A DNA stretch of 58,711 nucleotides from Candidatus Jorgensenbacteria bacterium CG03_land_8_20_14_0_80_38_39 (GTDB lineage Bacteria; Patescibacteriota; Minisyncoccia; UBA6257; GWB1-50-10). The DNA lies in NCBI GenBank assembly GCA_002781185.1, contig PEUU01000020.1, positions 1-58,711 of the forward strand, read 5' to 3'. The position numbers and the translations under genes were made by a program. Of this stretch, positions 2,823 to 54,785 are shown piece by piece. The notes under the pieces are model-generated. The model made no database searches and had not been told where the DNA came from. It worked only from the letters and a program-made list of their open reading frames with translations. Position 1 is the first letter of the stretch. Every line of letters begins with the position of its first letter.

Positions 2823-3368
2823 CTAAAGAGCGGCTTCTTTTTTATTTATTTTAACCAAAATTGAAGAAAGCAGAAATTTTATTAAGAAAAAAGAAAGGAG
2901 AGCTATTAAAAAACCTCCTAAAATATCCGAAAGCCAGTGAACGCCGGTAAATATCCTGGCTAAGCCGTTTAGAAAAGCCAAAATAAAAAACCAAATTCCC
3001 CAACGCCGGTTAAAGTAAAACAAAACAAGGGCAAGGGCAAACAAGAAAGCCGCGTGACCGGACGGAAAAGAAGCGCCGGATTCAGGAATTAAAGAAGTAA
3101 TTCCCAAAAGCTCAAACGGCCGAGGCCGATAATAAAAAAACCTAATAACTTCCGTTAAAATTCCCCGGGAGAGAATAAGGCAAAGGCCGGAAAAAATAAA
3201 AACCAGCCATTTTTCCTTCCAGGGTTTCTGCTTAAAAATAAAAACGAGGACGGCAAGAACCAAAAAAATAGGAAGATATTTGGCTAAAAAAACAGCCAAA
3301 GCGTTAATCAAGGAAGAAAAACCGCTGAGACTAAAAATAAATCTGAAAATAGAAATATCCAAAGACAT
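2823..3368 (-). CDS. PAP2-family (phosphatidic acid / undecaprenyl-diphosphate) phosphatase
   Basis: Polytopic membrane protein with PAP2 motifs PSGHAAF and GVHWLSDILGG. The ORF track start at 3461 would overlap rpsR, so the internal ATG at 3368 (MSLDISIF) is preferred. Confidence 0.75.
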   Translation of the reverse strand: MSLDISIFRFIFSLSGFSSLINALAVFLAKYLPIFLVLAVLVFIFKQKPWKEKWLVFIFSGLCLILSRGILTEVIRFFYYRPRPFELLGITSLIPESGASFPSGHAAFLFALALVLFYFNRRWGIWFFILAFLNGLARIFTGVHWLSDILGGFLIALLSFFLIKFLLSSILVKINKKEAAL

Positions 3369-3379
3369 AAAAACCAAAA

Positions 3380-3580
3380 TTAGCGCCGGACAAAAGGCAA
3401 AAGACCTATTATTCTGGCTTTTTTTATGGCCCGGGCCAAAAGGCGTTGATGTTTGGCGCAAACGCCGCTATGCTGCGGGTCAATAATTTTTGCCTGGCTG
3501 GAAACAAAACGTTTTAAGACTTCAATGTCTTTATAATCAACTTCTTTTAAATTTTGTGAGCAAAAAAAACACTGTTTCAT
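3380..3580 (-). CDS. rpsR: 30S ribosomal protein bS18
   Basis: 66 aa. CFFC...DYKDIEVLKRFVS...CAKHQRLLARAIKKARIIGLLPF matches the bS18 pattern. It is the last gene of the conserved rpsF-ssb-rpsR order. Confidence 0.9.
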   Translation of the reverse strand: MKQCFFCSQNLKEVDYKDIEVLKRFVSSQAKIIDPQHSGVCAKHQRLLARAIKKARIIGLLPFVRR

Positions 3581-11544: not shown

Positions 11545-12567
11545 TTAAAGATATTTTGCCCGATTTAAATTATGAGTATCCAGGTTTTTAGAAAAAATCG
11601 TTTCGCCATTTTTGGAAGAAAGGTAATACCAGTAAGGGCTGGCTTTGGACGTAAGTGCTGCTTGAATGGCATTGACGCTCGGATTAGAAATCGGCGTGGG
11701 CGTCCAGCCTAAATTTTTATAAGTATTGTAGGCCGAATTAAGGGTTAAGTCGTCTTTAGTTATTAAAGGATTGGGGCAATTTTTTAAACGGCCGCCGCAT
11801 TTAACATAAGTGACGGTAGCGTCAATTTGCAAAGGCATCCTTGCCAAAAGCCGCTTTAAAATGATGCCAGCAACCATCTGTCGGTCTTCAAATTTAGGCA
11901 CTTCTCTTTCCAGAAAAGAAGCTAAGGTAAGATAACGATACCAATCGGCATTATTAACCAGCAGCGGCCAAGCTTTATTTTGAAAATTGCCTAAAACTTT
12001 TTCCAGCACTTGGTCAACCGAAGAATACATCTTAAAATGATAAGTGTCGGGCATCAAAAATCCCTCCAGACTGTCAATATCAATATTAATCAAAAAGGGG
12101 TAACTATTATTAAGCCTCTTGGCCGGAAAACTGACCAGAGAATTCTTCTCAATGACTTTAGCGGCGCTTAAAATATCATCAATGTCTTTTAGGGTTGAAC
12201 CGTCCGGAACAGCAACAACCGCTTCATCTTTCCCGGCGGCCACTAAACTGTTAACAATTTGGGGTATGCTCATCGCCGCGTTTAAGTCATAAAGGCCGGG
12301 CTGAAATTTTTGAGCCTTACCGCTTAAAAGGGCATAAAGTTTAAAAATAAAAGCGGATTTTATTAAAGATTTTTGAACTAAACCATCGCCTATTTCTTTT
12401 AAACTATCCCCTTTAGTGATTTGAAACTTTACCTCCGGCGCCCCTTGAGTTAAAGGAACTAATCCGTAAAAAAAATAAGCGGTGCTAAATATAAAAACAA
12501 AGGCCATTCCGATGCCAACAAAAAAACGTAGGCTTAATAAACCTCTTTGGTTAAATTGAGGATTCAA
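11545..12567 (-). CDS. mltG: Endolytic murein transglycosylase MltG (YceG family)
   Basis: 340 aa with an N-terminal TM segment and YceG-like motifs LEGFLMPDTYHF, ASFLEREV and TPTPISNPS. Confidence 0.8.
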   Translation of the reverse strand: MNPQFNQRGLLSLRFFVGIGMAFVFIFSTAYFFYGLVPLTQGAPEVKFQITKGDSLKEIGDGLVQKSLIKSAFIFKLYALLSGKAQKFQPGLYDLNAAMSIPQIVNSLVAAGKDEAVVAVPDGSTLKDIDDILSAAKVIEKNSLVSFPAKRLNNSYPFLINIDIDSLEGFLMPDTYHFKMYSSVDQVLEKVLGNFQNKAWPLLVNNADWYRYLTLASFLEREVPKFEDRQMVAGIILKRLLARMPLQIDATVTYVKCGGRLKNCPNPLITKDDLTLNSAYNTYKNLGWTPTPISNPSVNAIQAALTSKASPYWYYLSSKNGETIFSKNLDTHNLNRAKYL

Positions 12568-13630
12568 GATTAATATATTGAATTATACTTATGAGGAAAG
12601 CATTCGTCAATAGGCTCGACCCTCCGTAACTTAAGAAGGGGAAAGTAATTCCGGTTACCGGCAAAAGAGCCAAATTGGAACCAAGGTTTAAAAAAAATTG
12701 GATGGCTAATGCCAAAACCGTTCCCAAACTAATAAACTTCCAAGAATTACTTTTCGCTTTTAAGCCGATTTGAATTAACCTAGCAATAATTACAATAAAA
12801 GTCAAGATTATAAGGCAGCCGCCAAAAACCCCCCACTCTTCAACAAGAGCGGCAAAAATAAAATCAGCTTGGGCTTCGGGTAAAAAATGAAACTGGCTTT
12901 GGGTACCGGCCATAAAACCCTTCCCTAAAAAACCGGCGGAACCAATGGCAATTTTTGCTTGAATGGCATTATAATTTATCCCCAAAGGGTCATGGGCCGG
13001 AAACAAAAAACCAATTATCCTATCTTGTTGATAAGGCTTAAGAAAAAAAATCCAGCTCAAGATTAAAAGAACCAAAATAAAAACCGTTCCCCAAAGCAAT
13101 CTTTTTTTACTGATTTTACTCATCAGCAAAAAACCGGCCCAAATACCTATTAAAACAACAGCCGAACCCAAATCCGGTTGAAAAGCGACTAAAATTGCCG
13201 GCAGCCAGGCGTAAAGAGATGAAATAAGAATATTTTTCCCTTGCCAAGCCTCAAGATGACGCCGAGAAAAAAAACTGGCCAAAATTAAAATTAGGGTCAT
13301 CTTGACTATTTCCGCGGGTTCAAATTGTAAATTCCCAATGCTTAACCAGCTGGTGGTGCCGCGAACTAATTTATTCTGAAGATTGGAAAATATCAAAAAA
13401 ATAATGCTCAACCAATATAAAACCAAAAGAAACCCTTTTTGATTGATAATTAACCGCCAATTAAAATTAATGCCGACAAAAATTATTATTAGCGCTAAAA
13501 CATACCATACCAACTGCCGCCAAAAAAAACGCTGACTGTAACCAAATAAGAAAGTTAAACTAAAAGCGGCCAATAAAAAAATAGCGGCCAATAGCCACCA
13601 GTCTATTTTTTTTAACCGGAGAATAATCAT
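12551..13630 (-). CDS. SEDS-family peptidoglycan glycosyltransferase (RodA/FtsW)
   Basis: 359-aa polytopic protein with motifs QPDLGSAVV, FIFAALVEEWG and PVTGITFPFLSYGGSS. Confidence 0.85.
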   Translation of the reverse strand: MIILRLKKIDWWLLAAIFLLAAFSLTFLFGYSQRFFWRQLVWYVLALIIIFVGINFNWRLIINQKGFLLVLYWLSIIFLIFSNLQNKLVRGTTSWLSIGNLQFEPAEIVKMTLILILASFFSRRHLEAWQGKNILISSLYAWLPAILVAFQPDLGSAVVLIGIWAGFLLMSKISKKRLLWGTVFILVLLILSWIFFLKPYQQDRIIGFLFPAHDPLGINYNAIQAKIAIGSAGFLGKGFMAGTQSQFHFLPEAQADFIFAALVEEWGVFGGCLIILTFIVIIARLIQIGLKAKSNSWKFISLGTVLALAIQFFLNLGSNLALLPVTGITFPFLSYGGSSLLTNAFLISIIQYINLESSI

Positions 13631-14388
13631 AACTTCCCATTAACAAAAACATCGGTCTTTGAAGAATCGGTATTTTGTTCCAAAAAATTATCCCGGGGAA
13701 AAACAACTGTAAAACTTCCCTCTTGCAGACTTTCTATTCTGGGAACATAAGTTTGGGCAACAAAAAGAAAACGGCCAAATTTATCTTTGAGAAAGGCTAA
13801 AATTTTCAAATCCGAGGCGGCTAAAATACTGCCGTTAAAAACGCGGCCGCTTACTTGAATGCCGGAAGGAGTAATTTCTGTTGTCCAAGAAGAGACTTTC
13901 AAGTTTGGTTTAGTTACTTCCTTAGTTGATTTCCAAGTCGGTTTCCCTAAAGAAACATCGGCCTCAATTACATCTTTGCCTAAATTAGAATCCGCTCCGA
14001 AAATATACTTTCTTGTCAAATCATAAATAAAACTAGAGCCGTTTATTGTTTTAAGCAAACGATGAGGTCGGCCGTAAAGATTGATTTGATAAGAAAAATC
14101 AGCCGCCGTATATCCAGGATTAGGATTAAAAATTTCCGCCAAAATTGCCAACTGGCCGCCGGCTAAGGCGAAAAATTGAGGTCGGCTGGCCTGGAGGGGT
14201 TTTAAATGAAAAATAGCGCAAGACAAACAAGGACCGCCGCAATCAACATCTTCCTCGCCTTGATTTTTAATCTGGTCAAAACAAGTGGGCGTTGGTTTTA
14301 AAACTATTTCATAAAAACCCCAAACAATGAGTCCAAAAACTGCCAGAAAAAATACGCCGTAAATAAATTTTTTCCATCCTCGGGACAT
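13627..14388 (-). CDS. Membrane-anchored hypothetical protein with Cys-rich motif
   Basis: 253 aa with an N-terminal TM segment and the motif CFDQIKNQGEEDVDCGGPCLSC. It is translationally coupled to the SEDS gene. Family unknown. Confidence 0.5.
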   Translation of the reverse strand: MSRGWKKFIYGVFFLAVFGLIVWGFYEIVLKPTPTCFDQIKNQGEEDVDCGGPCLSCAIFHLKPLQASRPQFFALAGGQLAILAEIFNPNPGYTAADFSYQINLYGRPHRLLKTINGSSFIYDLTRKYIFGADSNLGKDVIEADVSLGKPTWKSTKEVTKPNLKVSSWTTEITPSGIQVSGRVFNGSILAASDLKILAFLKDKFGRFLFVAQTYVPRIESLQEGSFTVVFPRDNFLEQNTDSSKTDVFVNGKL

Positions 14389-14403
14389 AACTTTTGGATA
14401 TTT

Positions 14404-15234
14404 TTATTTGTAAGATTTCATAGCGTTGATGATTTTTTTAAATTCCCCGGCTTTTAAACTGGCTCCGCCAACCAAAGCGCCGTCAATTTCCGGGTATTTA
14501 AGAAAGGCGGCTAAATTTTCTGAATTAACAGAACCGCCGTACAATAATTTTGAATTTTGAATTTTGAATTTTGAATTAAGAAACGATTTTATAAACTTTG
14601 CCATTTCAGCGGTTTCGGCTGGTGCAGCGGCCCGGCCAGTGCCAATTGCCCAGACTGGCTCGTAAGCCACAATAAGAGAATTTTGAATTTTGAAATCCGA
14701 AATCCGAAGTCTGAAATCTGAAGTCTGAAATCTGAAGAGGTCTTTTTCTAATTGATTTTTTACATAATTCTTTGCCCATTTTATATTCCGCCCTGTTTCA
14801 TTTTTCATCTGCGTCAGTCCGCGTTCAGTCCACGTCAGTCCGCGTTCAGTCCGCGTTTGTCCGCGTTGAGAAGGTTCGCCAATACATAAAATCACTTTTA
14901 AGCCAGCGCAGAGAGCGGCAATGATTTTTTTATTAATCATTTCATCGGTTTCTTTTAAATAAATTCTCCTTTCCGAATGGCCGACAATAACATATTTAAC
15001 TCCCAGATTTTTAAGCATCTGGGAAGAAATTTCTCCGGTGTAAGCGCCGCTTTCGGCCCAAAAAACATCTTGAGCCGCCAGCGAAGCTTTTTTTAAAATT
15101 TTTGAAATCGAAGATAAAAATACAAAAGGCGGGGCAATAATAATATTTTCTTTGTCTATCGCCCGAGCCAAATTAAGCGCTTTTTGCTCCTCAAAGGGAT
15201 TCATCTTCCAATTGGCAATTATGATTTTCTTCAT
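14404..15234 (-). CDS. tpiA: Triosephosphate isomerase carrying repeat-encoded insertions
   Basis: NWKMN, VGHSERR, AYEPVWAIGTG and YGGSV motifs are present. There are 69 residues between CIGE and AYEPVWAIGTG, versus 34 in E. coli TPI from memory. The extra residues (QRGQTRTERGLTWTERGLTQ and FRFQTSDFRLRISDFKIQNS) are encoded by tandem repeats. Confidence 0.9.
   Translation of the reverse strand: MKKIIIANWKMNPFEEQKALNLARAIDKENIIIAPPFVFLSSISKILKKASLAAQDVFWAESGAYTGEISSQMLKNLGVKYVIVGHSERRIYLKETDEMINKKIIAALCAGLKVILCIGEPSQRGQTRTERGLTWTERGLTQMKNETGRNIKWAKNYVKNQLEKDLFRFQTSDFRLRISDFKIQNSLIVAYEPVWAIGTGRAAAPAETAEMAKFIKSFLNSKFKIQNSKLLYGGSVNSENLAAFLKYPEIDGALVGGASLKAGEFKKIINAMKSYK
14548..14578. repeat. Heptamer tandem array (gaatttt x4) inside tpiA
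   Basis: gaattttgaattttgaattttgaatt encodes NSKFKIQNSK. Confidence 0.85.
14679..14740. repeat. Heptamer tandem array (gaaNtNt x about 9) inside tpiA
   Basis: gaattttgaattttgaaatccgaaatccgaagtctgaaatctgaagtctgaaatctgaag. It gives a 21-nt / 7-aa periodic peptide DFRFQTS-DFRLRIS-DFKIQNS. It resembles the arms of 16S insertion 6. Confidence 0.85.
14809..14867. repeat. GCGT-rich 10-11 bp tandem units (cagtccgcgtt) inside tpiA
   Basis: Bases 14828-14865 are 34/38 identical to 30281-30318 in 16S insertion 3, by hand alignment. Confidence 0.85.
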
Positions 15235-15287
15235 GGCTGTTTTTCTTATTGTATCATAACGTCATTCCAACTAAGAAAGAAATTACG

Positions 15288-15326
15288 TGTCTTCAATTCT
15301 TCCACATATGTGAAGAAACTGAAGAC
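15288..15326. repeat. Imperfect palindrome centred on ACATATGT
   Basis: gtcttcaattcttccacatatgtgaagaaactgaagac lies in the tpiA / galT-like spacer. It has the same core as 2203-2230. Confidence 0.7.
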
Positions 15327-15346
15327 ATTTGAATTGGTTAATTAGG

Positions 15347-16354
15347 CTATTTTCTTAGGATTTTTGCGGCTAAATCCGGGTCAATAACATTAATTTCAAT
15401 CCCCGTGCCCAATTCAAAACCTGCCTGGATGCTAAATTTTGGCAAAATTTCCATATGCCAGTGATAATGCTGATAAGCTCTTTTGTTTTTTAAAGGCGAA
15501 GTATGAATGAAAAAATTGTAATCTGGACCATTTAAATTCTTTTTCAGAAGATGAAGGACTTGACGCAAAATAATAGCCACCCCTCTCAATTCTCCATCAG
15601 GTGTATTTTCAAAATAAGGCTGGTGTTTTTTTAAAAAAACCCTTACCTCAAAGGGGTTGCGAGAAACAAAAGGAGCAAAGGCAATGGCATCTTTATTTTC
15701 GGCAATAATTCTTTTTTTCTCTTTTTTCTCCCAATCAATAATCGCGCAGTGAACGCAGCTATGATGTTCTTTAAAGTAGCGGTCGGAGCCGGCTAAAGAG
15801 TGGCTGACATCCGGCGGAACAACCGGCAAAGAAATAATTTGGTAATGAGGGTGATAAACCGAAGCTCCGGCTAAGGTTCCCCAATTATGAAAAATAGAAA
15901 CATAAGCCAAGTTTTTGTTGCCAGCTAGCATTAAATAGCGGTCGCGAAAAGCGACCAAAACCTGAATGGCTTCTTCTAAAGAAAGTTCAAAAAAATCTTT
16001 AAAATGACTGTTGGTCACCACCAAATCATGACGTCCTCTTCCTTCAACCACATTGTAGGGACCCTCTTTTTTTAGAACAATTTTTCCTTTTTGAGGAATA
16101 ACCAAATGATTCAGCACCGGGTAATCATTGGGAAAAATTAAAATTTTTGCCGGTCCTGTTTCTGGCCAGCGCAAAATGATTTTCCCCTCTATCCTTTTTA
16201 AAAATTTTTTGCCCTCAAAAGGACAGGTTTTTTTTGACGGAACTATTTGCTTGACTTTCTTTTTTAAAAACTGGTCGGGCCGCCTCAAACGACCCGGGGC
16301 AATAATAACCCAATCGCCGGAAACTAAATCTTGACGCAGTTCGGAGTTTTCCAT
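15347..16354 (-). CDS. GalT-family nucleotidyltransferase (galactose-1-phosphate uridylyltransferase / ADP-glucose phosphorylase-like)
   Basis: 335 aa with HIT-like histidine motifs HPHYQI and HWHMEILP and a Cys/His cluster (CVHC). Confidence 0.75.
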   Translation of the reverse strand: MENSELRQDLVSGDWVIIAPGRLRRPDQFLKKKVKQIVPSKKTCPFEGKKFLKRIEGKIILRWPETGPAKILIFPNDYPVLNHLVIPQKGKIVLKKEGPYNVVEGRGRHDLVVTNSHFKDFFELSLEEAIQVLVAFRDRYLMLAGNKNLAYVSIFHNWGTLAGASVYHPHYQIISLPVVPPDVSHSLAGSDRYFKEHHSCVHCAIIDWEKKEKKRIIAENKDAIAFAPFVSRNPFEVRVFLKKHQPYFENTPDGELRGVAIILRQVLHLLKKNLNGPDYNFFIHTSPLKNKRAYQHYHWHMEILPKFSIQAGFELGTGIEINVIDPDLAAKILRK

Positions 16355-26535: not shown

Positions 26536-26609
26536 GATCCTTCGTCGTGGAATTTAGATGATAGCTTCGCTAGATCCTTCGTCGTAAAATTTAGATGATA
26601 GCTTCGCTA
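26536..26609. repeat. 37-bp tandem direct repeat (2 copies)
   Basis: gatccttcgtcgtggaatttagatgatagcttcgcta occurs twice with 2 mismatches. The first 26 nt recur at 34598-34623. Confidence 0.9.
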
Positions 26610-28100: not shown

Positions 28101-28262
28101 TAGAGCAAAGCGAATTAAAAACTTTTTTGTTGTCCCAATAATCGTGCCTCGCTAATGTTCAGCACGATTTCGACAATAAATTTAATTAATCCACGCACAG
28201 CTTCCGCTACGCGTGCCTTGTTACGACTTCACCCATGTCACCGAGCTTACCCTAACCCAGCT

Positions 28263-28396
28263 TTTTGTTCTCAAGAACAAAAAGCGGCGCTGACTTACGT
28301 TGACTAAACGCTGACCCACGCAGAATTTCTTCCGCGTCGGTCTGCGTAATGTCTGCGTTCTTCCGCGAGCTTTTTGCGCTTCAGCGCAAAAAGCTG
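28263..28396 (-). other. 16S insertion 1, tip of helix 44 (about 134 nt, no ORF)
   Basis: It is flanked by cccagc/gctggg. Two terminal mini-hairpins (ctttttgttc-tcaa-gaacaaaaag and ctttttgcgc-ttca-gcgcaaaaag) enclose an imperfect hairpin of acgc/gcgt-rich units. Confidence 0.75.
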
Positions 28397-28764
28397 GGCT
28401 TTAGGTACTCCCGGCTCCCTTGGTGTGACGGGCAGTGAGTACAGGACTCGAGAACGTATTCACCGCGGCGTGCTGATCCGCGATTACTAGCGATTCCGGC
28501 TTCATGAGGGCGAGTTGCAGCCCTCAATTCGAACTGAGACCGAGTTTGATGGGATTAGCTCCGCCTTACGGCTTAGCAACCCATTGTCCCGGCCATTGTA
28601 ACATGAGTGTCGCCCAGGGCATCAAAGGGCCATGCTGATTTGACGTCGTCCTCACCTTCCTCCGTCTATACGACGGCAGTCTCTTCTGACACTTATAACA
28701 GAAGACAAGGGTTGCGCATGTTTCCCCATTGAAGGGAGCGCCTCACGGCACATGCTGACGGCCA

Positions 28765-29699
28765 TATTATTCCATTATTACTAATGGTATGGACTATACC
28801 ATCACCCTCTTCTTTTAAGAAAAAGAAGGGGGGACCGGCGTTTTATTCTTTATTTTACAAAAGAATAAAATCTCTAAGGTCTTTTTGAGATTAAGTCTCT
28901 ACGGGGTATGAATACTGATTTTTGTAATTTTAATGAATACGGAAAAATTAAGGAAAGAAATTTTTTAGTCTCTAATCTAGAAAAATACAAACAAAAAGTT
29001 TTAGCGCTATGATAATTATAGATTTTTATTCTCCGAAAACCTAACGATTGTATAAGTATTCTGTCTTGTTCTGCCTCCTCTTTATTGCTATAAACAATAC
29101 GACAATCGCTATAAAAATCTTTTGCCACAGAACCATCTCCATCAAATCTGCCTGCCATATAAGGCGAGATCAGTTTTCTGACAATAAAATTACTTAGATT
29201 ATTCTCTAATCCCTTAAATTCCCTCAACAAAGGACGACTATTTACATATAAATGATACGCTTTGGTGCGTCTTTTAAATTTATCTGGTCTGTAAATATAA
29301 AGTTTTAATCTTTTCTCGGGGAAAAATCTCAGAAAAAATTCACGAAATTTATCTATTAACAAAGTATTAGTATTACTTATACCAATACTACTTCCCCAAT
29401 AATAACCATCTGCGCACCACAAACCTAATATATAAGCATCGTCTTTTGTCTTAAAATTCCAAAAATCAGTATTCATACTTCCCACGGTATTACCCATCTG
29501 TTCGCTTCGCGAACACGCTGATTTACGCTGATTAATACGCTGATAAACGCTGATAAAAATTCCGCGTAAATCCGCGTCAGCGCCAAAGGCGCTAAAATCC
29601 GCGTTTATCCGTGTGTTTTACGAAGTAAAATGATTAGGGCTTCACCGTTATGAGCCAGTTTTTCATTCTAAATTTCTCTAGAATGGGTCGACATTTCAA
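28765..29699 (-). mobile_element. 16S insertion 2 (E. coli position about 1050), about 935 nt intron-like element with LAGLIDADG ORF
   Basis: The conserved ctgacggccat | … | catgcagcacctgt is split, and the boundary is ambiguous by the 4-nt ccat repeat. The insertion contains several hairpins and an acgctgat/atccgcgt repeat block at 29515-29613. Confidence 0.75.
28874..29497 (-). CDS. LAGLIDADG homing endonuclease (inside the 16S insertion)
   Basis: 207 aa with two LAGLIDADG-like motifs (ILGLWCADGYYWG and YMAGRFDGDGSV). It is on the same strand as the rRNA. Confidence 0.8.
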   Translation of the reverse strand: MGNTVGSMNTDFWNFKTKDDAYILGLWCADGYYWGSSIGISNTNTLLIDKFREFFLRFFPEKRLKLYIYRPDKFKRRTKAYHLYVNSRPLLREFKGLENNLSNFIVRKLISPYMAGRFDGDGSVAKDFYSDCRIVYSNKEEAEQDRILIQSLGFRRIKIYNYHSAKTFCLYFSRLETKKFLSLIFPYSLKLQKSVFIPRRDLISKRP

Positions 29700-29839
29700 C
29701 CATGCAGCACCTGTCCCGGCGTCCTTGAAAGAAAATTTTCCTTTCGGAAAATCGTCACCGGGATTTCAAGCCCTGGTAAGGTTCCTCGCTTACCATCGAA
29801 TTAAACCTCATGTTCCACCGCTTGTGCGAGTCCCCGTCT

Positions 29840-29871
<32 letters not shown>

Positions 29872-29967
29872 TCCCAGGCGGTCCACTTAATGCGTTAGCT
29901 ACGCCACTCCGAGGGTCGATACTCGAAACAGCTAGTGGACATCGTTTAGGGCGTGGACTACAAGGGT

Positions 29968-30337
29968 CAAGTTGTTACTTCGTAACAATCGCAGACTTAC
30001 GCTGACTTCACGCTGACTTACGCAGAAGTAAACGTAGACACGAGTTACGCGACACAGACATTTCTGCTGTGTTCTGTATATCGCTATACAGGTCGGACTA
30101 TATCTTCACCCGTTTAAATTTTACTTGTGTAAAATTTTGACGGGGTTTGGCGTGTAGTCTCTACGGAGTCCTGTTAGTCATAACAGGTTCCCTCGGTGTT
30201 TTCCATAAAATGGATTTTCACCGATATAGCCAAATTACACTTTAATATTGCTACTAAATGAGACACCATTGTTGCTTCGTGTCCGCGTCAGTCCGCGTTA
30301 AGTCCGCGTCTGTCTGCGGTTTCGCGAAGCGAAACGT
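29968..30337 (-). other. 16S insertion 3, within the 785-806 block (about 370 nt, no ORF)
   Basis: It splits ggactacaagggt | atctaatcc. The ends carry inverted GCGT-rich repeat arms (29989-30035 versus 30279-30320) and terminal mini-hairpins (gttgttac-ttc-gtaacaa and gtttcgc-gaa-gcgaaac). Confidence 0.75.
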
Positions 30338-30653
30338 ATCTAATCCTTTTTGCTCCCCACGCTTTCGCGCCTCAGGGTCAGGAACGTCCCAGCAGAATGC
30401 CTTCGCCTTTGGTGTTCCAGCCGATATCAACGGATTTCACCCCTACACCGGCTGTTCCATCTGCCTCTAACGCCCTCAATCCCGCTCATCTCTTCAGCGG
30501 CCTTAGGGTTAAGCCCTAAGATTTAACTGAAGATGCAGCGGGACCCCTACGCGCCCTTTACGCCCAATAAATCCGGATAACGCTTGGGGCCTTCGTATTA
30601 CCGCGGCTGCTGGCACGAAGTTTGCCACCCCTTATTCTATTCCTACTATCAAT

Positions 30654-30789
30654 CGTGTCTCGCTATCGCTCATCACCTTACGATTCCAAACTACGAATGC
30701 ATCCGAATCTACGAAAATAAATTTCAAATTTGTAGATTCGCATCAATTTGTAGTTTTGGATCGGTAGTGTCGAACAATAGTGAGACACG
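30654..30789 (-). other. 16S insertion 4, V3 region (about 136-nt hairpin)
   Basis: The outer stem is cgtgtctc…gagacacg. The inner arms are gattccaaactacgaatgcatccgaatctacgaa (30682-30715) and its imperfect complement (30729-30763). Confidence 0.7.
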
Positions 30790-31044
30790 ACTTTATCGGA
30801 ATAAAAAGCAGTTTACAACCCTAGGGCCTTCATCCTGCACGCGGCGTCGCTCGATCAGGCTTTCGCCCATTGTCGAATATTCTCGACTGCTGCCTCCCGT
30901 AGGAGTACGTTCCGTGTCTCAGTAACGTCGTTGGGGAATAGCCTCTCAGCTCCCCTACCCGTCGTCGCCTTGGTGGGCCATTACCTCACCAACAAGCTGA
31001 TAGGACCTAGGCCGCTCCCGAAGCGACTTGCGTCTTTACTGGTA

Positions 31045-31205
31045 ATTGGATTTTATTCGCAAGTCGCTTCAGAATTTCTAATTTCTAATTTTTAATTTCT
31101 AATAAATGATTTAATGACTTAATGTTTAAAAATTAAATCACTAAAAATTGATTGAAAATTTAAAATTGAAAATTGAAAATTGAAGAACTTGTAAACAAAA
31201 TCCAA
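31045..31205 (-). other. 16S insertion 5, helix 10 / V2 region (about 160 nt)
   Basis: The stem is ctggtaattggatttt / aaaatccaactaccag. The arms are heptamer arrays aatttct x4 and attgaaa x5. Confidence 0.65.
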
Positions 31206-31295
31206 CTACCAGACTATAGGATATTACCCAATCTTTCGACTGGCTATTTCCTACTTTGGGGTATGTACCAAGGTGTTACTAACTCGTTCGCCACT

Positions 31296-31730
31296 GTCAG
31301 ACATCAGACATTAGAAATCGGATTTCGGATTTTTTGAATTAATGAATTAATTTGTTTTGATTCCACTTTATATTCTTCGATTAATGCATCGCAATTTCCA
31401 CAATTTACATTGGAAAAGTTTAAAATTCTTATCTGCCACAAATGCGTAATTGTTTCATCTGAGGAACCAAGCGCCATATAAAGAAAACGTTTGAATTCGT
31501 TTTGCGAGTTCTTTTTTGCGAATCCCTCAGTAATCTGAGCGGAAATCGCTTTGGCTGAATTACAAACTTGAGATTTTAATTCAAATTCGTTTCGTGGCAA
31601 TTGATTTACCAGTTCATAAATTCTCGGCAATAAATCCATTGCCCTTTTATAAATTTGTAATTCCGTTACGTCTTTCATTAAATCCAATTATATCACCCGA
31701 AATCTGAACTCTGAAGTCTGATATCTGACC
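31296..31730 (-). mobile_element. 16S insertion 6, helix 6 / V1 (about 435 nt) carrying a four-helix-bundle ORF
   Basis: It splits cgttcgccact | cgttcgacttgcatg. Inverted arms gtcagacatcagacattagaaatcggatttcgg (31296-) and ccgaaatctgaactctgaagtctgatatctgac (-31730) can form a long stem around the ORF. Confidence 0.8.
31304..31687 (-). CDS. Four-helix-bundle protein of the 23S rRNA intervening-sequence protein family
   Basis: 127 aa. IYKRAMDLLPRIYELVNQLPRNEFELKSQVCNSAKAISAQITEGFAK…GSSDETITHL resembles the S23p / IVS four-helix-bundle family. It is paralogous to 43238-43621. Confidence 0.75.
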   Translation of the reverse strand: MDLMKDVTELQIYKRAMDLLPRIYELVNQLPRNEFELKSQVCNSAKAISAQITEGFAKKNSQNEFKRFLYMALGSSDETITHLWQIRILNFSNVNCGNCDALIEEYKVESKQINSLIQKIRNPISNV

Positions 31731-31956
31731 GTTCGACTTGCATGCCTTATCCACGCCGCCAGCGTTCATCCTGGACCAGGATCAAATCCTCTAAGAAATG
31801 CGGATGAACGCAGATATATACGCAGATAAACACAGATAAACAAGTTATCCGCGTAGACCCGCGTTTTAATCCACGTAAATCCGCGTCAAAATTGGGACAA
31901 CAAAAAAATCTTTAATTTTTAATTGTAAATGTTCATTCAGCATCATTCCGAATATC

Positions 31957-43049: not shown

Positions 43050-43190
43050 AAAATTTTTGTCCCGATTTTGTATCCCGCATAGCGGGATTTACAAAATCGA
43101 GGATCCACGATTTCTTTAATCCCGATCGTGAAGCGATCGTGGATAGAAATCGGGAGATTAAGTTTTAAATCAGGATTCAACATAGGAATT

Positions 43191-43250
43191 AGTAGTTAGG
43201 AGTTAGTAGTTAGTAGTTAGTAGTTAGTAGTTAGAAATTAGGAGTTAGTT
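43191..43250. repeat. Heptamer array agtagtt/aggagtt x8; left arm of the four-helix-bundle cassette
   Basis: agtagttaggagttagtagttagtagttagtagttagtagttagaaattaggagtt is the inverse of the taggagttagt units at 43630-43673. Confidence 0.85.
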
Positions 43251-43621
43251 TGTGAAGCGGATCTCAGTACTTGCGACAATTTATTTAACATTCGCATAAT
43301 CTCATTAAGTAATGAAATGATAGAATCGTACTCACTTATTGATATATAGCTCAATTCCTTTGATAACTCTAATTGAGTTTCTAATTCTGCACCAGAGGCA
43401 AAAGCGATATTAATAAATTGAGAATATTCTTTTGCGTGTCTCCGTAAATATCCTTCGGCAACATTGGAAGGAATCCCCACCGCCGCTCGTCTCATCTGAC
43501 TTACCAAACCATATGTCTCTGATTTGGGAAAATTTTTCGTTAACTTATAAACTTCTAAAACTAATTTCATAGATTTTTTCCAAACAATTAATTCTCTAAA
43601 TGATTTTGTTTTTGAATTCAT
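43238..43621 (-). CDS. Four-helix-bundle protein of the 23S rRNA intervening-sequence protein family
   Basis: 127 aa. FRELIVWKKSMKLVLEVYKLTKNFPKSETYGLVSQMRRAAVGIPSNVAEGY…GAELETQLELS is a classic pattern of this family. Confidence 0.85.
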   Translation of the reverse strand: MNSKTKSFRELIVWKKSMKLVLEVYKLTKNFPKSETYGLVSQMRRAAVGIPSNVAEGYLRRHAKEYSQFINIAFASGAELETQLELSKELSYISISEYDSIISLLNEIMRMLNKLSQVLRSASQTNS

Positions 43622-43629
43622 ATTTCTCG

Positions 43630-43673
43630 CTCCTAAATACTAACTCCTAGATACTAACTCCTAAACACTAAAT
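43630..43673. repeat. 14-bp units aactcctaNatact x3; right arm of the four-helix-bundle cassette
   Basis: ctcctaaatactaactcctagatactaactcctaaacacta. Confidence 0.85.
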
Positions 43674-43675
43674 CA

Positions 43676-44739: not shown

Positions 44740-45354
44740 ATGCGAAATAATGACAATAAGAAAATGATACAAAGAGTTGATATCCGTAATATCCGGAAGA
44801 ACTCAAGAGCTTACAAGATTCTAAAATACCTTGCTCTCGGTTCTGGATTCATTATCCTCTCTACCATCTCGCCCTATGGTGGCGCTAGAGTGGTGAAAAG
44901 CCTTATTCAGAATTATCTTAGACGGAAGCGTTTTGAAAAATACCGATTCTTAACTGATTTAAAAAATTTACAAAAAAGAGATTTAATTGATTATCAAGAT
45001 CTCGGAAATGGCAATGTTAAGATAATTATCACCGCTCGGGGAAAACAAAAAGTTCTTCTCAACAATATTGATGAGATAAAACTAAAGAAACAAAAACGAT
45101 GGGATGGTAAATGGAGATTGATAATATTTGATATTCCTCATAGCCGCAAAGGAGCGCGCGACGCCTTCCGAAAAATATTGAAAAATTTGGGCTTCTATCC
45201 CCTTCAGAAAAGTGTTTTCATCACGCCTTATCCCTGTGAAAATGAAATAGATTTTATTGCCTCAATCTTTGACATCCGCCAAAATGTGCTCCTGCTCTAC
45301 GTAAACAATTTTGAAGGCGAAGAAAAACTAAAATATCACTTCAAAATTAAATAA
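44740..45354 (+). CDS. PaaX-like protein: winged HTH + Cas2-like domain (paralog B)
   Basis: 204 aa with an N-terminal hydrophobic segment. The wHTH segment is LKNLQKRDLIDYQDLGNGNVKIIITARGKQKV. The Cas2/PaaX-like motif is WDGKWRLIIFDIPHSRKGARDAFRKILKNLGFYPLQKSVFITPYP. Confidence 0.65.
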   Translation: MRNNDNKKMIQRVDIRNIRKNSRAYKILKYLALGSGFIILSTISPYGGARVVKSLIQNYLRRKRFEKYRFLTDLKNLQKRDLIDYQDLGNGNVKIIITARGKQKVLLNNIDEIKLKKQKRWDGKWRLIIFDIPHSRKGARDAFRKILKNLGFYPLQKSVFITPYPCENEIDFIASIFDIRQNVLLLYVNNFEGEEKLKYHFKIK

Positions 45355-47936: not shown

Positions 47937-48983
47937 TCATTTGTCAAGGACTAAATTTGCCACATCTTGCACGTGTTTCACCAGTGTCGCTGCGTAACCC
48001 CATTCGTTATCATACCAAGAAAGAATTTTTACCAAATCCTTGTCAATGACTTTAATGAAATTCAAATCAATGATTGCTCCGTAGGGCTCGCCAATAATAT
48101 CCGAGGAAACCAATTGTTCTTCAGTAACTTTTAAAATCCCCTGCCAGCGCGGTTCTTGACTGGCTTTTTTAAAAATTTCCTTAATTTCTTCTACCGAGGT
48201 TTCTCGCTTGGCCACAAAAGTAATGTCGGCAATGGAGCTAGTGAGCAAAGGCACTCTTAAAGCGAACCCGTCAAATTTTCCTTCCAGTTCTTTAATCACT
48301 CGGGTGACGGCAATCGCCGCGCCAGTGGTGGAAGGCACAATATTTTGAGCGCCGGCCCGGCCGCGCCGCCAATCGCTTCCCTTTGTCGGCCCATCAACTA
48401 AATTTTGAGTGGCAGTATAAGCGTGAACAGTATTTAAAATGGCTTTTTTAATTCCCGGATTTTCTGCCATAATAGCCATTACCGGCGAGACAGCATTAGT
48501 GGTGCAAGAAGCGTTAGAGGTTAAAACCACGGAATTTAACTCGCCTTCATTTATTCCTATTAAAATAGTCTTGCCTTCAGGACCATCGGCATCTTTGGCC
48601 GGGGCAGTGATAATTACTCTTTTGGCGCCGGCTTGAAGATGAACTTTGGCTTTTTCATAAGATTCAAAAATTCCCGTGGCTTCAATCACAACATCAATTT
48701 TTAAATCTTTCCAGGGCAATTTAGCCGGTTCTTTTTCCTGAAGAACTAAAATTTTTTTATCATCAACCATCAAATAATTCTGCGTAAATCCGCCTTCAGT
48801 CTGCGTCAATCCGCGAATTTCCGCAGGAAATTGTCGGTACACGGAATCGTATTTCAAAAGATAAGCGAGATTATCAACACTGCCCAAATCATTGATGGCG
48901 ACAATTTCAAAATCCGGCTGATTAAAAGCTTGCCTAAAAAACAACCTTCCTATTTTTCCAAACCCATTTATAGCAATACGCAT
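47937..48983 (-). CDS. gap: Glyceraldehyde-3-phosphate dehydrogenase
   Basis: 348 aa with INGFGKIGR, the active site SNASCTTN and WYDNEWGY. An extra RGLTQTEGGFTQ segment is encoded by GCGT-type repeats at 48780-48827. Confidence 0.9.
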   Translation of the reverse strand: MRIAINGFGKIGRLFFRQAFNQPDFEIVAINDLGSVDNLAYLLKYDSVYRQFPAEIRGLTQTEGGFTQNYLMVDDKKILVLQEKEPAKLPWKDLKIDVVIEATGIFESYEKAKVHLQAGAKRVIITAPAKDADGPEGKTILIGINEGELNSVVLTSNASCTTNAVSPVMAIMAENPGIKKAILNTVHAYTATQNLVDGPTKGSDWRRGRAGAQNIVPSTTGAAIAVTRVIKELEGKFDGFALRVPLLTSSIADITFVAKRETSVEEIKEIFKKASQEPRWQGILKVTEEQLVSSDIIGEPYGAIIDLNFIKVIDKDLVKILSWYDNEWGYAATLVKHVQDVANLVLDK

Positions 48984-52400: not shown

Positions 52401-54785
52401 GCCGGTATCATTGCCTTTGGGATCATACATAATTTCCGTAATTTTTATTTCTGCCACAGCTTGCTGTTGATTGTTGGTTGTTTGTTGTTGGTTATTAGTT
52501 GACGTCCCGCCGCCTCCACCACCGCTTGTAGAAATTGGCGCTAATTGTGTATTTTCCTGCCGAGGCGTCCCGCCGCTCGTAGCCGAAGTGTGCCAACCAC
52601 AAGGCGCGGACAAATGCGGACTAGACGCGGACTCATACGGACAAATATCCCGTTCCATTGTTTTTCTTTCGGTCGCCGAAGTATTATCGCCGGCCGGCCA
52701 GTTAGGATTAGCCAAAACTTCGTCAATCAAATTACATTGCTCATCAAAAAGCCTTAATCCTTCATCAGAATTGGACAAAACGCCTGTATAAACAAAGTCG
52801 GCCGTGATTGTCGGCAGAGTATTGTCCTTAGTCCTTTCCAAAAGATAAAAACCGCCAGCAAGAATTTTTTTGTTAATGATTTTGCGATTGTCTGGCTGAC
52901 CAAAAACTACTTTAATCTGCTCTCCTTTGTCAATTAATTGCCAGCCGTTTAAATCAACTTCGCTGTTAGAAATATTTTTCAATTCAATCCATTCATCGCT
53001 GGCGTTGTTTGAAGTCCCCATCCAAGCAACTTCATTAATAATAACTTTTTGATGAGAGGGCGATTGACCAGTGGCAAAACTGCAAGGTTTAAAAGTTGGA
53101 GATGAAATTTTAGATTGATCTTGCAGTGAAGTATCAGAAACTTTTGACAGGGATGAGGTCGATGAAGTCGCTGATATCGATGATGTCGCTGCCAGCAATG
53201 GCGAAGTTTCTTCAACAACTTTTTTCTCCAATTCCTTTGAACCCAAAACTTGATATTTGAGTTTGGCGGAAATTTTGCCGCTGGCTAAATCAGCCGCCGA
53301 GTAAAAATATGTTCCCAAAGCTGCATCTAACGGCACTAAGTAAACATAGTCATAATTGCCTTTGGTATCGCTTAAAATTGAAATCTCAATTTTTTTATTC
53401 GGCGCCGGCGGCTCAAGAGATATCAAAACCCGACTATTGGGCGTAAATCCCTGACCGCGCTGATGAATTACTTCTCCTTTTTTTACTTCAGTTTTGTCAA
53501 GAGAAATTTTGGGGTCAATGATAGGGAGGACAATGGTTGTTTGTTTTTCTTCTCTGGTTGAAGTTCCAAAATTTTTATTTTCTGGCTGTTGGGAATTGAC
53601 CAAATCCGGCGTGTTGAGGGGGATTTCTTTAACCAAATTCCGCGGTCCTTGATTACTAAAAACACTGGAGAAGGTTTCACTAATGGTAGAAGCAACATTA
53701 CCGACAACATTACTGACAGCGCTCATCACCTGTCCAAAAAAGGACTTCTTTTCTTGAATATTTTCTTGAATAATTTCCGGGCTATTTTTTGCTTTTTCAA
53801 CTTCTTGGAAGAAAAGATTAATCACACCAGCGCCATATTGAACGGATTTAGTGGAAAGACGAGACCAGTAATTTTCTAAAACTATATCTGATTCTAATGT
53901 CGCATCGAATTTTATTGAGAATAAGATATTTGGAATTGATTTTCTAAATAAATAATAGTCCCCAAATTCACTATCAATTTTTGTAGGATACAAATATTTA
54001 TCTATTCTTACCTCATAATCTGGTTGTGGTAATTCGTATCCGCTTTGTGTTCCAATTGTATCCTTGCTGTAAAAATTATTATTTGAATATTTCGCTAATT
54101 CATCAAAATAAGAATTTAGATTAGAAAAAATTATTGGGGATTTATTTTGCAATCTTTGGTCTAAATTATTATCAGAATTAGAAAGAGTATATTTTTGAGT
54201 ATAGTTTTCATAAGGACTATTTCCAGGATGAGGGTCATTTCTTGTATGGTCTGGCACCGAAGTATCTTCAATTAAATGCAAAATATGGCCGAGGGTAAAC
54301 ATTGCTTTTTCTTTTTCACCTTGAACATAAAATCTAATCGCTCTTTGCCAGGTAAAATCGGTTTCAGTTGAAAGCACAGTGATTTTTAACTGTTGGACAG
54401 CTGTTAAAATTGAAGCAATGGTTGCCGGCACTTTATAAGTCAAATTGTTTTGATTACTGCTATCCTGCGCCCAATTTTTTGATTTTTGCCAGGTACCTAC
54501 ATTAACCAAGGGGTCAATGGCTGGATCATAAGTAAGCCCGCGATTATACACCGGGTCATAAAAATGGTTCATCCAGCGCGGAATATCATCCTCGTGCCGC
54601 GAACCATCTAATAAATAAGAAACCAAGTCATCAGAAATTTTATTATTCGGAAAATTTTGATTATAAAGCTTAACAACTTCTTCTGTTAAAAAGGCGTGTG
54701 TTTCCACGTCATAAGCAAAAGCGTTATGAGCATAAAAAATTAAAAGACCGGAAATGATAATTAATAATTTAAATTTAAACTTCAT
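49461..54785 (-). CDS. Giant secreted multidomain protein (Zn-dependent phospholipase C / nuclease P1-like N-domain, 3 lamin-tail domains, PKD, FN3-like)
   Basis: 1774 aa with a signal peptide. His/Asp-rich N-domain motifs are HEDDIPRWMNHFYDP and HLIEDTSVPDHTRNDPH. LTD-like segments are INEVAWMG…DEWIELKN (aa 578-), ITEIMYDP…REWIEIFN (aa 778-) and ISEIQIRG…DEFIELYN (aa 1020-). A PKD-like segment is WDFGDGATS (aa 925-1012). Poly-Gly and Asn/Gln linkers are present. Confidence 0.75.
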   Translation of the reverse strand: MKFKFKLLIIISGLLIFYAHNAFAYDVETHAFLTEEVVKLYNQNFPNNKISDDLVSYLLDGSRHEDDIPRWMNHFYDPVYNRGLTYDPAIDPLVNVGTWQKSKNWAQDSSNQNNLTYKVPATIASILTAVQQLKITVLSTETDFTWQRAIRFYVQGEKEKAMFTLGHILHLIEDTSVPDHTRNDPHPGNSPYENYTQKYTLSNSDNNLDQRLQNKSPIIFSNLNSYFDELAKYSNNNFYSKDTIGTQSGYELPQPDYEVRIDKYLYPTKIDSEFGDYYLFRKSIPNILFSIKFDATLESDIVLENYWSRLSTKSVQYGAGVINLFFQEVEKAKNSPEIIQENIQEKKSFFGQVMSAVSNVVGNVASTISETFSSVFSNQGPRNLVKEIPLNTPDLVNSQQPENKNFGTSTREEKQTTIVLPIIDPKISLDKTEVKKGEVIHQRGQGFTPNSRVLISLEPPAPNKKIEISILSDTKGNYDYVYLVPLDAALGTYFYSAADLASGKISAKLKYQVLGSKELEKKVVEETSPLLAATSSISATSSTSSLSKVSDTSLQDQSKISSPTFKPCSFATGQSPSHQKVIINEVAWMGTSNNASDEWIELKNISNSEVDLNGWQLIDKGEQIKVVFGQPDNRKIINKKILAGGFYLLERTKDNTLPTITADFVYTGVLSNSDEGLRLFDEQCNLIDEVLANPNWPAGDNTSATERKTMERDICPYESASSPHLSAPCGWHTSATSGGTPRQENTQLAPISTSGGGGGGTSTNNQQQTTNNQQQAVAEIKITEIMYDPKGNDTGREWIEIFNAGTSTVNLDGWKFSEGGSNHLLLVYRGSLTISPSEYAIIVDNPEKFLTDWSNYSGTIIDSSFSLNNTGETIAIKNGDLIVDQVNYQSSWGANDNGKSLQLINNEWKEIQPTPGQQNQISSTNQAPSAFFVYAPQNPQVDEEIIFDAASSTDDGQIVFYQWDFGDGATSTISTATTTHFYSQAGSYPVSLIIFDEQNASSTATSTTISVNSAQPAGVNHIVISEIQIRGDTANDEFIELYNPTNRNIPLDNFSIQYLSGTATSTDKIIKKNFSNGHQIAAKSFFLLINSNATSSLKDKSDMTYSGFSLSGNSSGATIFLVGTTTPIFDISESEIIDSFSYGAPLLSVSTATSTVPEANKSLERKAWQSNQCVSSQLDNEFLGNGCDTDSAADFEIRNTPHPQNSANLAEPREKPSINNLQAAYSPNPKIDFSWNVSIDAEGATSTNIYSFYDITDGNSTLLYKSSSSLAYSYGINEIGKNYEFQFEVQDRDGFANYSTTTIFAQSFFDGVYFYRDPRPGSDNYFVDLVTSSSRPLWDKNDTTNNQNWKLVMFYLNHDAPKQQTFDTAHWLTPEDPNFLSLKYNACHGYGPSSSPSLLIPWNNYSCQPGGPLSSAYSFGDLEDKRFNIKTASSVSDVAFSPADYLTLAFYDFGGGGGGNQYFNLAAVDKTKYYFQNEPPIHQPPSSPGPVTAVFNNNNDDPQVIVNWSGSNDPDTLDRLISYETNYALLNEPLASSSWQSLTRGIASQQISGLTLTEGQTYEIAVRAKDDFNLYSEIATTTFQMPILPLTLIDYSQGGDRPDGSNDWPLGYRECSRAAEKIKFNQTVKLDSYKIWLEQSGQNGYNARVSLVKASSTDENQPSADPADIISTDLVPHERIMPSWTFDLFNFNKSNNNIILSANQTYYLVVEGDNCQPGNSDVSSYEYHLSVKTFHNSPNSGNLYISDIFETKGSWTRFWDWRDISLILKGTIIP

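Follow-up and report, generated by a model that had tools for sequence, protein, structure and literature searches.

Short tandem-repeat modules shared by 16S rRNA insertions and in-frame segments of triosephosphate isomerase and other proteins in Candidatus Jorgensenbacteria

We analyzed a contig of 58,711 nucleotides (PEUU01000020.1, here called the window in its whole length) from Candidatus Jorgensenbacteria bacterium CG03_land_8_20_14_0_80_38_39, a member of the Candidate Phyla Radiation (CPR/Patescibacteria). The same kinds of short repeat occur there in the 16S rRNA gene's insertions and, in frame, in protein-coding genes, among them tpiA, which encodes triosephosphate isomerase (TPI). 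The lineage is unusually rich in short tandem arrays, which are of two kinds, heptamer arrays and a four-site decamer module. We think it reasonably probable that these are dispersed repeat modules, prone to slippage, which in proteins are translated into surface loops and in rRNA insertions supply the stem-forming arms. An earlier reading made from the letters of the window (the sequence-only reading) had pointed to repeats common to tpiA and the 16S rRNA gene. Its interpretation was largely right, and the phenomenon is broader than it saw and has precedents.

Results

Tandem Repeats Finder recovered all three repeat blocks that the sequence-only reading had placed in tpiA (Table 1). The blocks encode SQRGQTRTERGLTWTERGLTQ, DLFRFQTSDFRLRISDFKIQNS and NSKFKIQNSK; the first two agree with the peptides of that reading, the first heptad of DLFRFQTSDFRLRISDFKIQNS having an additional L. 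Site 1 contains six CGCGGAC cores spaced 10-11-10-11-10 (14808-14865) and a degenerate tail that closes with the terminal unit CGG AAT; the peptide of the decamer array is QRGQTRTERGLTWTERGLTQ. Tandem Repeats Finder described 14812-14867 as a repeat of period 21 (11+10) in 2.7 copies with the plus-strand core GTCCGCG, assigned a period of 7/14 to 14678-14737 in site 2, and scored the site 3 array as 100% perfect. The catalytic motifs NWK, GHSE, AYEPVWAIGTG, YGGS and GGASL are invariant in the TPI alignment and untouched by the repeats.

Between CIGE and AYEP we counted the 69 residues previously reported, the longest such interval among 118 CPR TPIs (mode 39-40). For the corresponding E. coli interval we count 35 residues, versus 34 in the sequence-only reading. 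This length excess is accounted for by the site 1 decamer array and the site 2 heptamer array. The third block was said to replace part of the loop before YGGSV, and so it does: the interval from AYEP to YGGS is 38 residues, which is the clade mode. It does not count as an insertion. Repeat-derived sequence occupies site 3 in every ortholog examined at the DNA level; six of the seven orthologs read at that level carry a heptamer array there, with a different unit in each.

Site 1 is empty in the fully syntenic relative L128, whose TPI has 245 aa, and in protein P0005, both reading GE(N/P) L/W-A/S-I-R-x-R/K-G-L, and the tpiA segment is therefore a true insertion. In other TPIs the same site holds unrelated repeat peptides, for example RATSDKRQATSDK and RELGIKNYELGIK, and the tpiA array exceeds its counterpart in L002 by 42 nt. 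Site 2 has different repeat units or none in orthologs. Units at sites 2 and 3 differ from genome to genome (CAAAATT/CAGAYTT in the window; CCTAAAA, GCTAAAA/AACCCTA, CTACCAC, CATTCTA and others elsewhere), and the heptamer unit is genome-specific in sequence. More repeat insertions were seen in other loops of the TPIs of L002 (10001-10867, P0025) and L004 (P0018). In this set, an ACGCGGA module follows helix 1 (RTRTCADKTRN), a small GGCGGA hairpin pair follows GHSERRKYL (SAEGGFASGG), and a hairpin is bounded by direct TCAAAAG heptamers (SKVKSS-LFGRSPVGR-QKSKV).

An AlphaFold model of TPI based on a 26-sequence alignment had a mean predicted local distance difference test score (pLDDT) of 85.5. 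Scores fell below 50 nowhere but in site 1 (residues 124-133 and 140-147) and were about 60-78 at site 2. Foldseek matched the model to solved TPIs with TM scores of 0.83-0.88. The surface-loop placement proposed earlier agrees with this model, which is a canonical TIM barrel apart from the insertions, all of them in loops, and the repeat-encoded residues are probably additional, flexible loop residues.

The 16S rRNA gene of the window is a textbook case of CPR rRNA insertion, with a group I intron (RF00028), a weak second intron-like region with a LAGLIDADG open reading frame (ORF), an intervening sequence bearing an ORF of the 23S_rRNA_IVP family (IVP), and ORF-less insertions. It was scored best by the archaeal SSU model of Rfam, which misplaced the 5' end at 31331 and matched helix 1 to heptamer repeats. 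In fact the conserved 5' end, AGAGGATTTGATCCTGG, begins at about 31792. Inverted pairs of arrays flank the insertions and form long stems on folding (z -7.0, -7.9 and -9.6); the tpiA arrays are single-armed. The arm at 30281-30318 pairs with 29990-30023 (-47.8 kcal/mol, z -7.0). The insertion at 31293-31732 breaks the 16S 5' domain and has the features of an rRNA intervening sequence, namely insertion in a helix, a long stem (-42 kcal/mol, z -7.9) and an ORF whose protein matches PF05635 (E 3.4e-20). Folding thus upheld the claim that both 16S partners of the tpiA arrays are arms of insertion stems. In a further stem, at 31073-31184, both arms consist of complementary heptamer arrays.

The identity of 34/38 between 14828-14865 in tpiA and 30281-30318 in the 16S rRNA gene was reproduced exactly. 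Over 38 nt, no control exceeded 24 matching positions among 100 randomised windows or 29 among 300 synthetic random-unit arrays, and the likeness of the decamer arrays is far beyond chance and low-complexity effects. The second reported match, 26/33 between site 2 of tpiA and the 5' arm of the intervening sequence at 31293-31732, stood only in part. At the positions first given it amounts to 9/33, and a shift of 2 nt (14698-14730 versus 31698-31730) restores 26/33. For this 33-nt comparison the maximum in randomised windows was 24, 4% of synthetic heptamer arrays reached 26/33, and heptamer arrays of unrelated phyla fit tpiA nearly equally well (24/28 versus 25/28). After the low-complexity control and these comparable matches we no longer treat the heptamer match as strong evidence.

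The decamer family forms a discrete module, in which four CGCGGA(C/T)-type sites follow one another at 10-11-10 spacing over about 37-39 nt, or 13 codons. We searched about 150 kb of CPR DNA for chains of at least four CGCGGA-like cores, and all 16 chains found have a centre spacing of 10-11-10, rarely 10-12-10. The coding chains lie in the TPI of six genomes or strains, in GAPDH arrays at four loci (counting an odd second copy that is inverted), in SecA and in two other proteins; the non-coding chains lie at three 16S positions of the window (30282-30318, 28331-28367 and, in the leader, 31848-31885). Together with the 34/38 match, these chains bear out the claim that repeat families are common to an rRNA gene and coding sequences. 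The 21-nt inner period is inherent to the module. That this period (10+11) is a coding adaptation was considered and dropped, since the sites are also spaced 10-11-10 in the leader and the rRNA arms.

GAPDH provides a second site. Compared with T. maritima GAPDH, its peptide, IRGLTQTEGGFTQ, is an insertion of 8 aa, and in many CPR orthologs the site is empty (EIKVEGSNLVV), with neither RGL-like sequence nor seed. The native codons CCT GCG GAA ATT form a pseudo-unit 10 nt upstream of the GAPDH array. In a relative whose GAPDH is 93% identical, the module reads CGC GGA CTC ACG CGG ACT GAA CGC GGA CTA ACG CGG AAT, with the frame and the terminal unit (ACG CGG AAT) of the TPI arrays of L002 and L005. 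Since TPI and GAPDH carry the identical 10-11-10 module in one and the same frame, and the empty GAPDH sites are seedless, the decamer module has the look of a dispersed element more than of one that arose in place. On the Logan contig L132, an inverted second copy of the GAPDH array with native flanks (CCTGCGGAAATT...AATTA; 3335-3381, minus strand) is present some 900 nt downstream of the GAPDH gene and probably represents a gene fragment or an assembly foldback.

In-frame arrays are found in unrelated housekeeping ORFs: in TPI, GAPDH and a lamin-tail-domain protein in the window, and in SecA, MurD-like, GalT and RecG-like proteins at related loci. The SecA gene of L127 has the module in the opposite orientation (peptide SPRVSASSPRESA), and the arrays in the MurD-like and GalT proteins of L002 are heptamer arrays. 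One heptamer unit, CTAAAAC, is common to four of the eight arrays in L002. In the forward orientation the module contains TGA in two of three frames, and every copy in a coding sequence (CDS) uses the open frame. Upstream of the gene for the 1774-aa lamin-tail-domain protein, 49210-49353 holds a 70-nt unit in 2.1 copies (98% identity). Each copy carries two TTTTATCTGCGGATAGACAG motifs with the GCGGAT core of the decamer family, which may be candidate operator sites.

Periods of 7, 10/11, 14 and 21 were detected in the window by Tandem Repeats Finder. In 132 kb of CPR DNA we observed 17 arrays of period 7 versus 0 expected and 12 of period 10 versus 3.6 expected; none had period 3 or 6. Heptamer arms also bracket a second IVP gene, described as bAvd-like, whose cassette is bounded by inverted TTAGTAG arrays (43186-43238/43622-43674). 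In the relative L133 (12590-12640) the transketolase halves are adjacent, with a 36-nt spacer containing TGAATTA heptamers. Because this cassette lies between transketolase half-genes, IVP cassettes are not confined to rRNA genes.

Next to these comparisons between loci, independent assemblies and close strains bear on how the arrays vary. The JGI contig L001 is identical to 12448-16320 of the window (3873 nt) but for 1 base, tpiA is also identical on NCBI, ENA and Logan contigs, and its protein recurs on many contigs. The tpiA arrays span 32-62 nt, less than a sequencing read. Since they fit within reads and independent contigs agree, an assembly artefact behind the tpiA arrays is very unlikely. 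The strain contig L130, otherwise about 99% identical in tpiA, has exactly one additional 21-nt unit (TERGLTR) at site 1, a copy-number polymorphism that supports the earlier suggestion of expansion-prone repeats.

Another strain contig, L131 (ERZ27293411, 88 kb), has a G-to-T change in the tpiA array that turns GGA into an in-frame TGA and the unit into CGCTGAC, as is typical of the 16S arms (L131 position 1409-1600, about 14800-14830 of the window). Gene calling splits its tpiA into ORFs of 138 and 134 aa, of which the second begins within the insertion, at the ATG of QMKNETG. The TGA could be an error, a null allele, the footprint of a gene conversion or the sign of a split TIM barrel. Genetic code 25 (TGA = Gly), which this variant suggested, was rejected, long ORFs being intact under table 11. 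A metagenome scan with the left junction of tpiA for more strain variants gave 0 matches.

Codon usage inside the site 1 array is uniform. We compared genomes whose TPIs are about 61-65% identical and whose flanks are saturated at synonymous sites, and found that identical residues have the same codons in 12/12, 10/10 and 9/9 cases inside the array; in the rest of the gene the share is about 45% (Fisher p 4e-4 to 1e-3). The uniform codons, the varied units in one loop across genomes and the one heptamer at several loci within a genome point to DNA-level spread or homogenisation, combined with slippage, and not to peptide selection as the way in which the arrays would have evolved.

We also scanned a single genome of each species for runs of three CGCGGA cores 10-11 nt apart, which gave at least 120 loci. 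Among the matches listed are Acidobacteriota, Chloroflexota, Planctomycetota, Gemmatimonadota, Verrucomicrobia, Proteobacteria, cyanobacteria and two Patescibacteria; chance may account for some of those in very GC-rich genomes. The matches listed have ACGCGGAT-N-W-A as their consensus unit, and at loci of at most 62% G+C their spacing is 10 in 142 cases versus 6 otherwise. These listed ACGCGGAT arrays are mostly intergenic and often have an inverted copy; the two CPR arrays lie deep inside a long ORF. Rfam models run on the window and 18 array-bearing loci matched only rRNA, the group I intron, tRNAs and, elsewhere, Acido-Lenti-1, and left the arrays uncovered. Two candidate identities for the arrays were rejected. 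As IVP cassettes they found no match in the 120 loci at the sensitivity of BLAST (tblastn of both IVP proteins of the window), and CGCGGATAA as a DnaA box (7/9 positions) was dropped because conservation is limited to ACGCGGAT, the final 2-3 positions being variable. In a metagenome-assembled genome of Pyrinomonadaceae (Acidobacteriota), an intergenic composite (L009, 5745-6035) has ATTTCGG heptamer arrays on the outside and ACGCGGAT decamer arrays within them, nested and inverted around a 125-nt core, as also seen in L042 and L047; it combines both unit families of the CPR window.

Table 1. Repeat-bearing features of the window
Feature	Coordinates	Strand	Description
tpiA, triosephosphate isomerase	14404..15234	-	Intact 276-aa ORF; Pfam PF00121 on identical protein P0001; hosts three repeat blocks
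tpiA site 1, beta5-alpha5 loop	14785..14867	-	CGCGGAC module array; encodes QRGQTRTERGLTWTERGLTQMKNETGRN
tpiA site 2, alpha5-beta6 loop	14678..14740	-	Coding-strand heptamers CAGAYTT/CGGATTT/CAAAATT; encodes FRFQTSDFRLRISDFKIQNS
tpiA site 3, alpha6-beta7 loop	14546..14577	-	Plus-strand AATTTTG x4.6; encodes NSKFKIQNSK; no added length
16S rRNA gene	28181..31792	-	About 3.6 kb, at least 5 insertions; Rfam SSU match 28181-31331 plus conserved 5' end
16S 3'-domain insertion	28288..28367	-	One long hairpin; module 28331-28367 (10-11-10) plus inverted partner; -78.4 kcal/mol, z -9.6
5' arm of group-I-intron-bearing 16S insertion	30281..30318	-	CGCGGAC module 10-11-10; 34/38 partner of tpiA array
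16S intervening sequence	31293..31732	-	Inverted heptamer arms 31293-31328 and 31697-31732 around 23S_rRNA_IVP gene 31304-31687
16S leader	31803..31886	-	CGCGGAT module 31848-31885 (10-12-10), then TTTATCTG(C/T)G decamers
Second IVP gene cassette	43186..43674	-	IVP 43238-43621, PF05635, E 1.2e-39; between two transketolase half-genes
Four-unit module in GAPDH	48779..48825	-	Gene 47937-48983; encodes IRGLTQTEGGFTQ, in frame
Heptamer array near lamin-tail module	52465-52501		Encodes STNNQQQTTNNQQ
Module in lamin-tail-domain protein	52605..52646	-	Opposite orientation; protein of 1774 aa, 49461-54785; in frame, encodes ICPYESASSPHLSA

Discussion

These findings suggest a sequence of events in which module copies become established at many unrelated loci, perhaps by template switching, by gene conversion at microhomology or through an active element. 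Once established, an array would lengthen or shorten via slipped-strand mispairing in steps of 21 nt, which equal two decamer units or three heptamers. With a genome that is about 83-98% coding, copies would last only where they are harmless. In the rRNA gene, inverted pairs would form long stems around introns and intervening sequences and would presumably be removed during rRNA maturation. In protein genes, single arms in an open frame would be transcribed and translated into surface loops; in tpiA, about 30 residues would have been added on either side of helix alpha5 and the alpha6-beta7 loop re-encoded. We infer the translation of the arrays, their neutrality and their spread between loci.

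Several observations weigh against this account. The case for translation draws on frame and stop status and is partly circular, since only intact ORFs are called genes. The borders of the CDS copies (30-60 nt) show neither terminal inverted repeats nor target-site duplications, nor was an associated transposase seen, which leaves dispersal with no known agent. The likeness of the heptamer arrays in tpiA and the 16S rRNA gene is only marginally above the low-complexity control (p about 0.04). The native site 1 sequence R-x-R-G-L of L128 (codons CGT CAG CGC GGC TTA, of which CGC GGC TTA encodes R-G-L) resembles one repeat unit, and an origin in situ is plausible there. The TGA allele of L131 could signal an unconventional decoding of the segment. 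Finally, the CPR survey spans only the 150 kb mentioned above.

The unit-like codons of L128 bear on the proposal that the arrays are purely local microsatellites, grown by slippage from chance seeds, kept uniform by concerted evolution within each array and alike because of shared mutational or compositional preferences. The pseudo-unit upstream of the GAPDH array could be such a seed, 21-nt indel polymorphism is what slippage produces, and the turnover of units at site 3, where the heptamer differs in each ortholog that has it, is as predicted for change within arrays; heptamer long simple-sequence repeats are likewise ascribed to polymerase slippage (Mrazek 2007 via PMC4679880). Nevertheless, local growth leaves unexplained why one four-unit 10-11-10 module with the terminal ACG CGG AAT recurs in unrelated genes and rRNA arms, why empty GAPDH orthologs have no seed, why array codons are uniform between genomes with saturated flanks, and why ACGCGGAT arrays are found across many phyla. 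An origin in situ fits neither GAPDH nor the fixed module architecture, and we regard purely local growth as unlikely.

An idea of about the same low standing goes further than dispersal itself. The four CGCGGA(C/T) sites of the 39-nt module lie on one face of the DNA helix and might be a putative recognition array of a dedicated protein or enzyme, the working end of an unrecognised class of mobile or foldback-like element. Its full form would be array, cargo and inverted array, and single arrays would be solo copies; in the gene-dense CPR genomes such elements would survive by being lodged in rRNA insertions and, in frame, in essential enzymes, with uniformity kept by active turnover or gene conversion. 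Relatives of the module, ACGCGGAT arrays with 10-nt spacing that are often nested with heptamer arrays, form intergenic hairpins in Acidobacteriota, Chloroflexota, Planctomycetota, Gemmatimonadota and others. We offer this as a speculative possibility next to the simpler account of dispersed, slippage-prone modules.

Selection on the peptides is a more doubtful explanation still. Under it, repeat peptides such as RGLTRTERGLT would be adaptive, selected at the protein level for interaction or localisation, and the likeness to rRNA would be incidental. The RGLT-TE frame does occur in both TPI and GAPDH of several genomes, and seven-residue periodic peptides are common at these loops among CPR TPIs. 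However, synonymous variation is nil inside the array and about 50% outside, wholly different peptides (RATSDKRQATSDK, RELGIKNYELGIK) fill the same TPI loop elsewhere, the opposite orientation yields unrelated peptides in SecA and the lamin-tail-domain protein, the same DNA makes up non-coding rRNA arms, and the structural model shows low confidence and no packing of the repeat residues. An adaptive role is accordingly quite improbable.

The sequence-only reading had left open that the segments are removed at the RNA level, and a related proposal is that they are absent from the mature product through mRNA removal or ribosome bypass, like the rRNA insertions. The same families do lie in rRNA insertions that must be excised, and the in-frame TGA in the tpiA array of L131, with the remaining gene intact, is the lone hint in this direction. 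Against it, all CDS copies are in frame and free of stops even though two of the three forward frames hold TGA, and indels come in 21-nt steps. No Rfam model, those of introns included, matched within tpiA; its single arrays folded alone gave no gain over shuffles (z +1.3 and -3.1); and intein motifs were not seen in TPI, which aligns straight through the repeat segments. Removal at the RNA level is not supported by these results, and absence from the product is highly improbable. Least credible of all is that repeats were mis-assembled into genes of a metagenome bin or wrongly annotated: short repeats are known to cause assembly errors and the inverted GAPDH copy of L132 is odd, but the independent contigs carry an identical tpiA, the arrays are shorter than reads, and the same modules stand in orthologs from other genomes and assemblies.

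That no described system resembles the dispersed modules, as the sequence-only reading stated, was too strong, because Rickettsia palindromic elements, heptamer repeats, Nostoc intron stems and Borg repeats all precede them. Copies of Rickettsia palindromic elements reportedly also occur in RNA genes, and the small dispersed repeats of cyanobacteria, reportedly described by Elhai et al. in 2008, form a further parallel.

Rickettsia palindromic elements are small repeats inserted in frame in many metabolic and housekeeping genes of a reduced genome (Ogata et al. 2000/2002 via PMC10969869). They resemble our modules in having in-frame copies in unrelated genes that are translated and were judged compatible with the protein fold, and they differ in being palindromic and about 100-150 bp long with a family consensus (PMC10969869), whereas the CPR arrays measure 30-60 nt and consist of 7- or 10/11-nt units. 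The CDS copies described here are also single-armed, without hairpin potential, variable in copy number and from an unrelated lineage. In behaviour, these elements are the closest parallel (PMC10969869).

In sequence type, the closest parallel is the long simple-sequence repeats, which are tandem repeats of 5-11 nt, predominantly heptamers, and whose accepted dynamic is slippage (Mrazek 2007 via PMC4679880). The TAACTGA repeats of Beggiatoaceae and cyanobacteria are heptanucleotide arrays of this kind (PMC4679880). The arrays of the window are likewise tandem repeats of 5-11-nt units beyond chance, with copy-number polymorphism between close strains. The two share a patchy distribution of units and occasional copies in ORFs that are translated with a 7-aa period (PMC4679880). 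The described long simple-sequence repeats are mostly intergenic or at the ends of hypothetical ORFs, whereas ours occupy internal loops of essential enzymes and form inverted pairs in rRNA; moreover, unlike them, the CPR genomes have a decamer family with a fixed four-site 10-11-10 architecture.

The P6b stem of the group I intron in Nostoc tRNA-Leu(UAA) is built of complementary 7-nt arrays and shifts in length by 7 or 14 nt (PMC4476775). [quoted passage not shown] The Nostoc stem differs in lying in a tRNA-gene intron of cyanobacteria, with no reported counterpart in an essential protein gene and no decamer module (PMC4476775). Borg tandem repeats evolve fast, lie in ORFs, keep the frame and add disordered regions (PMC9879509). 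[quoted passage not shown] Insertions in CPR rRNA genes are known to carry LAGLIDADG or 23S_rRNA_IVP genes, and the 2024 survey that describes them makes no mention of repeats, hairpins, palindromes or a link to protein-coding genes (PMC11270868).

None of the named precedents unites non-triplet units, a fixed four-site module, sharing between rRNA and essential enzymes, and nucleotide uniformity between genomes. We found no literature linking Patescibacteria with such repeats, although our coverage of it was incomplete and an earlier description is possible. If the modules are dispersed as we suggest, slippage-prone or selfish repeats can colonise core glycolytic and secretion enzymes in the smallest bacterial genomes, and a single repeat system would shape both proteins and rRNA. 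It would be a possible source of the many odd loops of CPR proteins and of differences in their length that are so far unexplained, and its arrays would be hotspots of frameshift and nonsense variants. Repeat-encoded loops would consist of non-homologous residues, which matters for annotation, alignment and phylogeny. The fixed 10-11-10 module, its conservation at the nucleotide level and its relatives in distant phyla hint at a mechanism of recognition or spreading.

Other repeats in the window

Two paralogous genes with a PaaX central/Cas2-like domain (PF20803), at 44740-45354 (plus strand) and 55603-56190 (minus strand), are each bracketed by repeats; the latter has additional weak matches to Cas2 and PadR. 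The first lies between 35-nt inverted arms (44704-44738/45392-45426), accompanied by a perfect array of a 14-nt unit in 3.1 copies (45359-45402), and the second between near-identical perfect palindromes of 40 nt (55468-55507 and 56238-56277). Downstream of the ORF at 359-1690, a G+C-rich imperfect inverted repeat (1741-1861) has 57-nt arms that are 72% complementary and a 7-nt loop; it matched no Rfam family at gathering score and may be a structured RNA or a terminator. Intergenic tandem duplications at 26536-26609 (37 nt, 2.0 copies) and 56345-56419 (33 nt, 2.3 copies) are unlike the 7- and 10-nt families.

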